From a phage: a DNA stretch of 39,466 bases. Made by a program: the position numbers and the translations under genes. This document shows, one piece after another, positions 26,683-36,530 of the stretch (its first letter is position 1; each line of letters begins with the position of its first letter). The stretch is taken from sequence record PZ445457.1; one strand, written 5' to 3'. The notes beneath the pieces were generated by a model. The model was not told where the DNA came from. It worked only from the letters and a program-made list of their open reading frames with translations, and searched no databases.

Positions 26683-26861
26683 TGGTTACGATAACCCTTG
26701 TGCTCACTCTGATAACTGTGAGCGGACAAACAATAAGTCAAGTCCCTATCACGGCACCAAAGGCTGAGGCATACGAGATATGCGAACAGCAAGGGCGCTC
26801 GTGGTCTAAGGACTTGATGAAGAACGGCAGGGTTTTCACTGCCAACTACAACTGTATCTAA
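26682..26861 (+). CDS. Hypothetical small protein with signal-peptide-like N-terminus (59 aa)
   Basis: ATG overlaps upstream stop (taatg); MVTITLVLTLITVSGQTISQVP... hydrophobic N-terminus then polar domain with 2 Cys. Confidence 0.45.
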   Translation: MVTITLVLTLITVSGQTISQVPITAPKAEAYEICEQQGRSWSKDLMKNGRVFTANYNCI

Positions 26862-26875
26862 TAGGAGTACACAAC

Positions 26876-27178
26876 ATGGCTATTAAATTCCCCGGCAACA
26901 CAATCCGTCTGTCTGACACCATCGACCAGTATGCTCGCCGAGTGCACATCAACGTTCGCAACGGCAAGGTAACTCTGGTCTATCGCTGGAAGGACAGTAA
27001 GTCCACCAAGGCGCACACACAGCGTGTGACTCTGGATGACACACAGGCAGGTCGTCTGCTGGCCTCCGTTGCTGTAGCTGCTACTGTGGCTGTAGGTGAA
27101 GACAATGTTCGTCAGGTTCTGCTGGGTAAGACAGTAGAGTCTGAGGGCAACATGCTTGCTGACAAGTGTGAAGAGTAA
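26876..27178 (+). CDS. Hypothetical protein (100 aa), gene 4.5/4.7 region
   Basis: RBS taggag; ORF in the + strand operon context; no motif recognised. Confidence 0.6.
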   Translation: MAIKFPGNTIRLSDTIDQYARRVHINVRNGKVTLVYRWKDSKSTKAHTQRVTLDDTQAGRLLASVAVAATVAVGEDNVRQVLLGKTVESEGNMLADKCEE

Positions 27179-35137: not shown

Positions 35138-35160
35138 TAATACGACTCACTATTGGGAGA
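35138..35160 (+). promoter_or_regulatory. Phage RNAP promoter (phi10-like), full consensus match
   Basis: taatacgactcactattgggaga followed by 5' stem-loop gggaga...tctccc and a leader containing ttaaactttaa plus RBS aaggag. Confidence 0.85.
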
Positions 35161-35261: not shown

Positions 35262-36305
35262 ATGGCTAAGATGAATGGTGGTCAGCAAATTGGTAAAGAC
35301 CAAGGTAAAGGTATGTCTGCTGGTGATAAACTGGCTCTGTTCCTGAAAGTGTTCGGTGGTGAAGTTCTTACCGCGTTTACTCGTACCTCTGTTACCATGA
35401 ACAAACACCTCGTGCGTTCCATTCAGTCCGGTAAGTCCGCGCAGTTCCCTGTGCTGGGTCGTACCAAAGCTGCTTACCTGCAACCGGGTGAGAACCTCGA
35501 TGACAAACGTAAAGACATGAAGCACACTGAGAAGGTCATCAACATCGATGGTCTGCTGACTGCTGACGTTCTGATTTACGACATCGAAGACGCAATGAAC
35601 CACTATGACGTGCGCTCCGAGTATACCGCACAGTTGGGTGAATCTCTTGCGATGGCTGCTGATGGCGCGGTTCTGGCTGAAATGGCTAAACTGTGTAACC
35701 TGCCGTCTGCGTCTAATGAGAACATCGCTGGTCTCGGTAAGGCTTATGTACTGGAAGTTGGCAAGCAGTCTGATCTTCAGGGAGACCAAGTTAAGCTGGG
35801 TCAGGCTATTATCGCACAGTTAACTCTGGCTCGTGCCAAGCTGACTAGCAACTATGTTCCGTCTGCTGACCGTGTGTTCTACACCACTCCAGACAACTAC
35901 TCTGCTATTCTGGCTGCTCTGATGCCTAACGCTGCAAACTATCAGGCTCTGATTGACCCGTCTACTGGCTCTATCCGCAACGTTATGGGCTTCGAAGTTA
36001 TTGAGGTTCCGCATCTGACTGCTGGTGGTGCTGGCGAAGACCGTCCAGAAGAGGGTGTAAATCCGACTGGTCAGAAACATGCGTTCCCTGAGACTTCCTC
36101 TGGTGACACCCGTGTTGCTCTGGACAACGTTGTCGGTCTGTTCAATCACCGCTCTGCCGTTGGTACTGTTAAGCTGAAAGATATGGCACTGGAACGTGCT
36201 CGTCGAGCTAACTTCCAAGCAGACCAGATTATCGCTAAGTACGCTATGGGTCACGGTGGTCTGCGCCCTGAAGCATGTGGTGCGCTGGTTTTCAACAAGG
36301 CTTAA
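35262..36305 (+). CDS. gene 10A: Major capsid protein gp10A (347 aa)
   Basis: Collinear with recalled T7 gp10A (GDKLALFLKVFGGEVLTAF.RTSVT, DKRKD.KHTEKVI.IDGLLTADVLIYDIEDAMNHYDVRSEYT, ERARRANFQADQIIAKYAMGHGGLRPEA). Confidence 0.98.
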   Translation: MAKMNGGQQIGKDQGKGMSAGDKLALFLKVFGGEVLTAFTRTSVTMNKHLVRSIQSGKSAQFPVLGRTKAAYLQPGENLDDKRKDMKHTEKVINIDGLLTADVLIYDIEDAMNHYDVRSEYTAQLGESLAMAADGAVLAEMAKLCNLPSASNENIAGLGKAYVLEVGKQSDLQGDQVKLGQAIIAQLTLARAKLTSNYVPSADRVFYTTPDNYSAILAALMPNAANYQALIDPSTGSIRNVMGFEVIEVPHLTAGGAGEDRPEEGVNPTGQKHAFPETSSGDTRVALDNVVGLFNHRSAVGTVKLKDMALERARRANFQADQIIAKYAMGHGGLRPEACGALVFNKA

Positions 36306-36439
36306 CTTCTCGCAAACTCGTAGGGGACACTGAGTCCCTTACTGAAGTTGAGCAAGAGCTAACGCCACAACAGAAAGCTGCCCGTACCCGTGCGGCAAAC
36401 AAGGCTCGAAAGGAAGCTGAGTTAGCTGCTACTGAATGA
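35262..36439 (+). CDS. gene 10B: Minor capsid protein gp10B, predicted -1 frameshift product of gene 10 (about 392 aa)
   Basis: Extension after the shift: QQGLTSRKLVGDTESLTEVEQELTPQQKAARTRAANKARKEAELAATE; analogous to T7 10B by established knowledge. Confidence 0.45.
36287..36293 (+). promoter_or_regulatory. Putative -1 programmed ribosomal frameshift slippery site (G GTT TTC) near the end of gene 10A
   Basis: Heptamer GGTTTTC six codons before the 10A stop; the -1 frame is open for 48 more codons to TGA at 36437-36439. Confidence 0.5.
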
Positions 36440-36449
36440 TAACTATATG

Positions 36450-36494
36450 AAACCCCTTGGGTGCCTTCGCGGGTGCTTGAGGGGTTTTTTTTCG
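36450..36494 (+). terminator. Tphi-like terminator for phage RNAP after the capsid gene
   Basis: aaaccccttgggtgcc-ttcgc-gggtgcttgaggggttt long stem with several G-U pairs followed by a T8 tract, like recalled T7 Tphi. Confidence 0.75.
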
Positions 36495-36500
36495 TACCAC

Positions 36501-36523
36501 TAATAGACTCACTAATGGGAGGA
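36501..36523 (+). promoter_or_regulatory. Degenerate phage promoter-like sequence upstream of gene 11
   Basis: taatagactcactaatgggagga; one nt missing relative to consensus at -12. Confidence 0.3.
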
Positions 36524-36530
36524 AATCACT

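Follow-up and report, generated by a model that had tools for sequence, protein, structure and literature searches.

The gene 10 locus

Does gene 10 of the T7-like phage in sequence record PZ445457.1 specify one capsid protein or two? An earlier note on this DNA had predicted a -1 ribosomal frameshift close to the end of the gene, which would generate a minor capsid protein 10B next to the major protein 10A. We examined this prediction by analysis of the window, that is the whole stretch of DNA of 39,466 nt, which represents a circularly permuted and essentially complete genome of a T7-like phage. The gene 10 region showed 96–99% nucleotide identity to gene 10 of the phages 285P, S523, PhiV-1 and Kvp1, all of them members of the genus Berlinvirus in the subfamily Studiervirinae. 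285P, S523 and PhiV-1 are Escherichia phages and Kvp1 is a Kluyvera phage. Over its entire length the window was about 90–93% identical to the best deposited genomes, none being higher than about 93%. Two features define the upstream part of the locus.

35138–35160, plus strand: phi10-type phage RNA polymerase promoter (TAATACGACTCACTATTGGGAGA), which drives gene 10; read directly from the sequence and equal to the feature 'Kvp1 promoter phi10A' in FJ194439
35262–36305, plus strand: gene 10A, major capsid protein of 347 aa and 37.1 kDa; from the ORF listing and Pfam PF21703

The product of gene 10A is a T7-family major capsid protein. It matched the Pfam family Gp10A-like (PF21703) with E = 6.7e-108 over residues 61–343, and the gene 10 protein is ~78% identical to that of the T7 gene 10 locus (L044).

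Slip site and -1 reading frame

The 3′ end of gene 10A reads CTG GTT TTC AAC AAG GCT TAA and thus contains a heptamer in the phase G|GTT|TTC. The heptamer begins with the G that ends codon 342, six codons ahead of the stop codon 348.

36287–36293, plus strand: slippery heptamer G GTT TTC with Val343 in the P site and Phe344 in the A site; from sequence and phase
36293–36439, plus strand: -1-frame extension of 10B, 48 codons plus TGA; from translation and mass calculation

Re-reading in the -1 frame from C36293 yielded 48 sense codons, QQGLTSRKLVGDTESLTEVEQELTPQQKAARTRAANKARKEAELAATE (QQGLTSRK...AELAATE), followed by TGA at 36437–36439. The predicted 10B protein comprises 344 + 48 = 392 aa and has a mass of 42.0 kDa. 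These results bear out the earlier note, which had placed GGTTTTC six codons before the 10A stop, had described the -1 frame as open for 48 codons to a TGA just before a Tphi-like terminator and had expected a capsid species about 5 kDa larger. The heptamer was found in the correct phase, translation gave the same 48 codons and the same stop, the terminator stem begins at 36449 after a gap of 10 nt, and the computed difference between 10B and 10A is 4.92 kDa.

The individual elements were compared with chance expectation. GGTTTTC is expected 2.2–2.4 times per strand and was observed twice on the plus strand, the second copy at 26831 being out of phase. For 48 consecutive codons without a stop, the probability in this genome is 0.05–0.08. 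Open -1 frames of at least 44 codons beyond the stop occurred at 10 of 37 gene ends, and most of them were attributed to an overlapping next gene. Heptamer count alone or ORF length alone lies within chance, and neither is significant. Once joined with the comparative evidence described below, the combination of heptamer and -1 frame is beyond chance.

Protein data on the identical Kvp1 sequence

Between positions 36200 and 36525 the window and Kvp1 are identical at 324 of 326 positions. The sole difference consists of two T's in the T-run of the terminator, which is longer here. The gene 10 region as a whole is 96.2% identical to Kvp1, and the -1 ORF encoding the 10B tail is identical in Kvp1, 285P, S523 and BSP161. 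The GenBank record of Kvp1 (FJ194439) labels 10B with the remark 'results from ribosomal frameshifting'.

SDS-PAGE and MALDI analysis of CsCl-purified Kvp1 virions revealed a 43.6 kDa band above gp10 (Lingohr et al. 2008, PMC2579914). Treatment of this band with DTT/iodoacetamide and trypsin released peptides with m/z 2244.123, 2372.219 and 2692.310. The authors assigned the peptides to 10B residues 327–372 and concluded that a programmed -1 frameshift takes place at the poly-U/Phe site. TTTTCA is given there as the site; the authors noted 'no typical slippage site' and proposed only a possible pseudoknot at the terminator (PMC2579914).

We calculated the masses of the corresponding peptides encoded by the window. 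LVGDTESLTEVEQELTPQQK (10B residues 353–372) has a computed mass of 2244.124 and KLVGDTESLTEVEQELTPQQK (residues 352–372) of 2372.219. The junction peptide YAMGHGGLRPEACGALVFQQGLTSR (residues 327–351, ...GALVF|QQGLTSR) gave 2692.308 with carbamidomethyl-Cys and one oxidised Met. We infer the Met oxidation in this peptide, while PMC2579914 states only alkylation. Published Kvp1 masses and masses computed from the window agreed within 0.002 Da. Had the slip occurred one codon further on (VFN|QG), the calculated mass would be 2678.293; one codon before, it would be 2650.261. The published junction mass matches 2692.308, which places the shift at VF|QQ, as for a slip on G GUU UUC. The virion protein evidence that the prediction calls for, a gp10 species of greater mass that yields a peptide across the frame junction, has in effect already been obtained on the identical Kvp1 sequence. 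It was shown in Kvp1 virions and is predicted for the phage of the window.

An identical protein would arise from transcriptional slippage, in which the U4 run gains a U during synthesis by the phage RNA polymerase and ribosomes read the altered mRNA normally. The inserted U also leads to ...VFQQG..., so that the Kvp1 mass data cannot separate U insertion from a ribosomal slip. We nevertheless regard this route as very improbable. The U4 run is short for polymerase slippage, which in its known productive cases requires homopolymer runs longer than four. A conserved structure placed 6 nt away, the usual distance for ribosomal stimulators, fits a ribosomal mechanism, and the lineages with xxA AAG sites described below point in the same direction. 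Moreover, the literature on recoding counts the T7 gene 10 site among the ribosomal heptamers (PMC5009743).

Codon choice at the slip site and selection on the 10B tail

For comparison with related phages, we collected 73 unique gene 10 3′ ends from IMG/VR and GenBank. An in-frame GTT TTY was present in 27 of 27 unique loci with a T7-type tail in the -1 frame and likewise in ten other loci with long extensions. The T3-type sequence xxA AAG was found at eleven long-extension loci. Among the loci without extension, 23 of 24 carry no GTT TTY, and most have GTC TTC or GTG TTC, which are the codons used where Val-Phe is kept. The sole locus with GTT TTY and no extension is Yep-phi, a T7-tail locus carrying a premature stop in the tail. 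Fisher's test on GTT TTY versus extension gave p ~1e-10, uncorrected for phylogeny. Across the 73 ends, the synonymous third position of the Val codon thus varies with whether a -1 product is encoded downstream. In most loci with a tail GTT is preceded by G and in a few by A or C, whereas GTT itself was never replaced, which shows U UUC to be the essential part of the site. In the relative BA14 an in-phase A AAA AAG adjoins GGTTTTA.

The second half of the comparison concerned the extension.

36359–36406, plus strand: conserved tail core LTPQQKAARTRAANKA in the -1 frame; from 27 unique sequences including T7

Of the 16 residues in the core LTPxQKAARTRAANKA, 11 are invariant and four nearly so with one exception each; the fourth residue is A or Q. 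Most of the core positions are encoded by 2–5 synonymous codons in these 27 sequences. Pairwise comparison of the -1 extension between the window and its relatives resulted in dN/dS values of 0.16–0.55. A Pfam search with the 10B extension of the window gave no match. Among 5.8 billion proteins the 48-aa tail retrieved only 17 short ORFs of 44–69 aa, and the two named ones are from Escherichia phages; the majority of the 17 are located on contigs of about 39–40 kb. The earlier note had described the extension as unlike that of T7. This holds true for the first ~22 residues, which are unrelated (QQGLTSRKLVGDTESLTEVEQ in the window versus QSGVMLGVASTVAASPEEASVTSTEET in T7), but not for the core ELTPxQKAARTRAANKARKEAELAA, which is common to T7. 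Judged by these codon and residue patterns, the predicted extension is homologous to the T7 10B tail and is under purifying selection at the protein level, with an N-terminal linker unlike T7. 10B was reported to be dispensable in T7 and T3 (PMC3276506). Together with the premature stop in Yep-phi, this dispensability indicates that selection for the tail is not absolute.

The same two observations might suggest that heptamer and open -1 frame are inherited relics and that no meaningful 10B is made in this phage, and the heptamer alone indeed caused less than 1% shifting in a T7 construct (PMC1635266). Such a loss of function is highly unlikely, because the sequence from the slip site through the terminator stem is identical to that of Kvp1, in which a 10B band is visible, because the 27 unique sequences show purifying selection on the tail core, and because the choice of the slippery codon goes along with the tail.

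We give just as little credence to a separate gene 'gp10b' of 54 aa with its own start codon, running from the ATG at 36275 to the TGA at 36439: the ORF is present in the ORF list, the records of 285P (GQ468526) and PhiV-1 (MT542512) contain a stand-alone gp10b CDS and gene callers in public collections also call such ORFs of 44–69 aa, but the ATG is a by-product of the 10A Ala-Cys codons GCA TGT, it is missing in the loci L012–L016 (10A GCA GTA, Ala-Val) although the tail is kept there, a properly spaced Shine-Dalgarno sequence is lacking (GGTGG precedes the ATG by 16 nt), and the Kvp1 junction peptide 327–351 joins 10A residues to -1 residues and therefore derives from a fusion, as is the T7 product.

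A predicted stem-loop downstream of the heptamer

Elements that may stimulate the frameshift at the heptamer were also analyzed. In T7 the gene 10 site is G_GU U_UUC, in which X_XX is G_GU (PMC5009743). About 10% of translations shift at this GGTTTTC site in wild-type T7, as against less than 1% for the bare heptamer with native sequence only to the 10A stop (PMC1635266). The low value of the bare heptamer implies that 3′ stimulators are needed. In the window, a stable structure is predicted shortly after the slip site.

36294–36299, plus strand: 6-nt spacer AACAAG between heptamer and stem-loop; from the predicted fold
36300–36353, plus strand: predicted two-tier stem-loop, candidate 3′ frameshift stimulator; fold predicted, role putative

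Stem 1 is formed by 36300–36309 and 36344–36353 (10 bp), and its 5′ arm GCUUAACUUC holds the 10A stop codon UAA (36303–36305). An internal loop of 10 nt (36310–36319) leads to stem 2, in which 36320–36328 pair with 36334–36342 (9 bp), closed by the apical loop ACUGA. The calculated minimum free energy was -25.3 kcal/mol (z = -3.9), a stability that none of 200 dinucleotide shuffles attained. The structure starts 6 nt 3′ of the heptamer. When GUU occupies the P site and UUC the A site, stem 1 would have its base at the mRNA entrance, which is the usual geometry of -1 stimulators.

The structure had been derived from the window sequence before it was compared with relatives. In 12 unique Berlin-type sequences 99.1% of the pair cells were standard pairs, while controls with a slid 3′ partner reached 29–53%. 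Both-sided changes occurred at four pairs, all of them from one divergent sequence, L018. This sequence has 12 substitutions in 38 stem positions and keeps all 19 pairs (P ~1e-5 under random substitution, 0.009 with transitions only). The peptide encoded by this stretch diverges in L018 as well (LVGDTESLTEV vs LGADSTLAPDV). One-sided changes that preserve pairing were found in PhiV-1, L012 and L016.

T7 and its close relatives display a different, analogous structure. Its outer stem is formed by GGAGUAAUGC and GUGUUACUUC, includes the 10A stop, starts a few nucleotides after the heptamer and shows one-sided changes only. The z values of the 3′ structures were -2.0 for T7 and -4.7 for its relative L039. 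Altogether, analogous stable structures with z between -2.0 and -4.7 were located 4–6 nt 3′ of the heptamer in T7 and in three other lineages. Besides T7 and its close relatives, two lineages form stable structures at this position. The L058-type lineage, which has GGTTTTC, forms no stable 3′ structure (z = +0.67). An Rfam search of the stem-loop region gave no family match. A covariance model of the Berlin element was extended to other lineages and abandoned, as only the window and L018 scored well and L024 and others had E values of at least 0.1. The structures in T7 and other lineages are analogous to the Berlin stem-loop and not alignable with it. The proximal stem-loop is not described in PMC2579914, and no mention of it was found in the T7 literature consulted.

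Whether the stem-loop at 36300–36353 stalls the ribosome over the slip codons, and so acts as stimulator, is evenly balanced in our judgment. Slightly below that balance we place the possibility that gene 10 frameshifting in phages of the Berlin type depends mainly on this cis-acting element and that T7 has an analogue of it. Against a stimulator role count the facts that all both-sided changes come from L018, that the L058 type has no stable structure and that the T7 group shows one-sided changes only.

Terminator and upstream sequence

A second candidate region lies at the end of the 10B reading frame.

36449–36492, plus strand: T-phi-like intrinsic terminator, an 18-pair hairpin at 36449–36488 followed by a run of 8 T's; from terminator scan and direct reading

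The 5′ arm of the hairpin contains CCCC (36453–36456) and the 3′ arm GGGG (36481–36484); the stem is identical to that of Kvp1. CCCC in the T-phi-like terminator was found in all relatives inspected, and its distance from the slip site is 160 nt in the window. In T7, the CCCC in T-phi contributes to gene 10 frameshifting from more than 200 nt downstream, an effect without explanation so far, and the cis-signals of T7 gene 10 are still described as unexplained (PMC5009743).

The G-runs considered near the slip sites were GGGG at 36323–36326 in the window and GGGGG ~20 nt after the heptamer in T7.

No conserved pairing partner for the terminator CCCC was found near the slip site. Pairing with a G-run in this region was dropped, as the duplexes comprised only 4–6 bp and showed no covariation. 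In the T7-like loci L028, L030, L032 and L039, GGAAG occupies the position of the T7 G-run, which likewise counts against such pairing. An SD-like stimulator upstream of the heptamer was also rejected. The only candidate is GGTG at 36279–36282, which lies 4 nt from the heptamer and is explained by Gly-Ala codons.

Comparison with known frameshift systems

As a recoding event, the T7 10A/10B frameshift has been textbook knowledge since the 1980s and 1990s (Dunn & Studier 1983 and Condron et al. 1991, both cited through PMC5009743 and PMC1635266). The earlier note had stated that the locus mirrors this system, and the shared heptamer, the identity to Kvp1, the codon usage and the selection in the -1 frame support this view. 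Heptamer, phase and place are the same, with five codons from Val to the 10A stop in both phages. Both capsid proteins belong to the same fold family, the tail core LTPxQKAARTRAANKARKEAELAA is common to both, and a T-phi terminator with CCCC follows the 10B stop in T7 as in the window. T7 also has a stable structure a few nucleotides after the heptamer, whose 5′ arm includes the 10A stop, but sequence and topology differ from the window. Further differences are the length of the extension (53 codons in T7, 48 in the window) and the distance from slip site to CCCC (more than 200 nt versus 160 nt). All sequence-level features that define the T7-type 10A/10B frameshift are present, and on these grounds the system is of this type. 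Kvp1, which belongs to the same genus Berlinvirus, is closer still: slip site, extension and terminator stem are identical, whereas the rest of the genome differs.

T3 and phiYeO3-12 have in common with the window the gene, the position and a -1 shift to a C-terminally extended minor capsid protein. In T3, slippage occurs on C CCA AAG at a lysine codon, and the 86-aa extension is an Ig-like Big_2 domain (Pfam PF02368). A T3-type 10B was ruled out for the window, which contains no CCA AAG and whose extension has no Pfam match.

In E. coli dnaX, the spacing between heptamer and stem-loop is 6 nt. dnaX resembles the window in that bacterial ribosomes shift to -1 and the heptamer is followed after a few nucleotides by a stem-loop (elements: PMC1635266). 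It differs in its heptamer A AAA AAG and in an SD-like element ~10 nt upstream, for which the window offers no convincing counterpart. With only the 3′ stem-loop at 6-nt spacing in common, a dnaX-type cassette was ruled out.

Model for 10B synthesis and its implications

We consider it very probable that a -1 slip on G GUU UUC in gene 10 yields the minor capsid protein 10B in this phage. According to this model, a minority of the ribosomes translating gene 10 would slip back by one base on the heptamer, with tandem re-pairing of tRNA-Val from GUU to GGU in the P site and of tRNA-Phe from UUC to UUU in the A site. Slipped ribosomes would bypass the 10A stop at 36303–36305 and read 48 more codons in the -1 frame up to the UGA at 36437–36439. 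The putative product consists of 10A residues 1–344 followed by QQGLTSRK...LTPQQKAARTRAANKARKEAELAATE. The slip would be ribosomal as in T7, presumably with an efficiency near the ~10% of T7, and the distal CCCC of the terminator may also contribute, as reported for T7. 10B would co-assemble with 10A and, by analogy with the C-terminus of T7 10B, expose on the outer surface of the head a basic tail that is probably helical.

The frameshift itself is already known. Its demonstration in Kvp1, for this exact sequence, dates from 2008, and several Berlinvirus records annotate it; notes on a minor capsid protein or on slippage are found in the records of BP12A, FE44, S523, Yepe2 and others. What is added here, the proximal stem-loop and the comparative series, is modest.

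For annotation, our data imply that the ORF at 36275–36439 is better not annotated as a separate gene, contrary to the records of 285P and PhiV-1, and that 10B is to be entered under gene 10 as a joined CDS (35262..36293, 36293..36439). Recoding specialists may find value in the comparative series, with GTT TTC versus GTC TTC, interchangeable tails and a stem-loop with compensatory changes. If the stem-loop does act as stimulator, it would account in part for the difference between the bare T7 heptamer, with less than 1% shifting, and the phage, with about 10%, and it would provide a concrete partner to set beside the unexplained long-range effect of the terminator CCCC.

Annotation and surroundings of the 10B reading frame

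The predicted -1 frameshift tail of the major capsid gene 10 lies within one short reading frame of the window:

36275-36439, ORF of 54 aa, entered as a stand-alone gene 'gp10b' in the records of the Berlinvirus relatives 285P and PhiV-1

Searching large protein collections with the 48-aa tail as query retrieved similar short ORFs of 44-69 aa. A joined 10B coding sequence, with this reading frame as its 3' part, is the better annotation. The slip heptamer GGTTTTC occurs once more on the + strand, at 26831-26837 inside a stop-to-stop ORF (26810-27178). This copy was ruled out as a slip site because it is read in the phase GGT TTT C, which differs from the slip phase.

Across 36200-36525, the only difference between the window and the related phage Kvp1 is the length of the terminator T-run (36485-36492), which comprises eight T residues in the window versus six in Kvp1. 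The gene order of the window is circularly permuted with respect to deposited T7-like genomes, gene 10 being located at 35.2 kb, whereas both Kvp1 and 285P have it at approx. 21.5 kb. The permutation suggests an assembly opened at an arbitrary position.

Slip site and tail variants in related phages

Phage BA14 (L003, approx. 1555-1573, corresponding to window 36287-36305) reads G GTT TTA AAA AAG TCT TAA. The T7-type site is thus replaced by GGTTTTA, immediately followed by an in-phase dnaX-type heptamer, A AAA AAG, and the first pair of the outer stem (stem 1) of the predicted downstream stem-loop is lost by a G to T exchange. The annotation of the BA14 record is limited to the remark 'may be translated via slippery sequence'.

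In Yersinia phage Yep-phi (L011, approx. 1889-1891, corresponding to window 36350-36352), a GAG codon is changed to TAG, so that the 10B tail ends 19 residues past the slip site and before the conserved tail core. The same base change introduces a T-T mismatch into stem 1. Unless it is a sequencing error, this stop codon suggests that the 10B tail can be lost.

Distribution of the tail core and apparent exchange of -1 extensions

A DNA pattern search for LTPxQK located the tail core, (E)L(T/S)PxQKAARTRAANKA, within or at the end of ORFs without capsid similarity on seven metagenome contigs (L119, L122, L126, L137, L138, L140 and L143), among them small ORFs of 78-114 aa. As the match extends to residues beyond the searched pattern, the core looks like a short motif common to capsid and non-capsid ORFs. 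Pfam gave no match.

Quite different -1 extensions follow the gene 10 stop codon in L015, L021 and L023 as well as in L046, L055, L058, L064 and others, and the capsids bearing them are 80-90% identical to that of the window. The L015-type extension, a module of approx. 91 aa, was without a match in Pfam. In L048 and L066 the extensions exceed 260 aa. The extension of T3 (L006), the sole one of these differing types that was scanned, matches Big_2. Tail type and slip site assort independently among the gene 10 loci compared, so that the -1 extension of gene 10 behaves like an exchangeable module. Gene 10 is joined to a T7-type tail (…ELTPAQKAARTRAANKA…) in the absence of GTT TTC in metagenome and IMG/VR contigs, where the sole candidate slip sites, GTA AAG in L099/L128 and GCA AAG TAA in L130, are of the T3-like lysine type.
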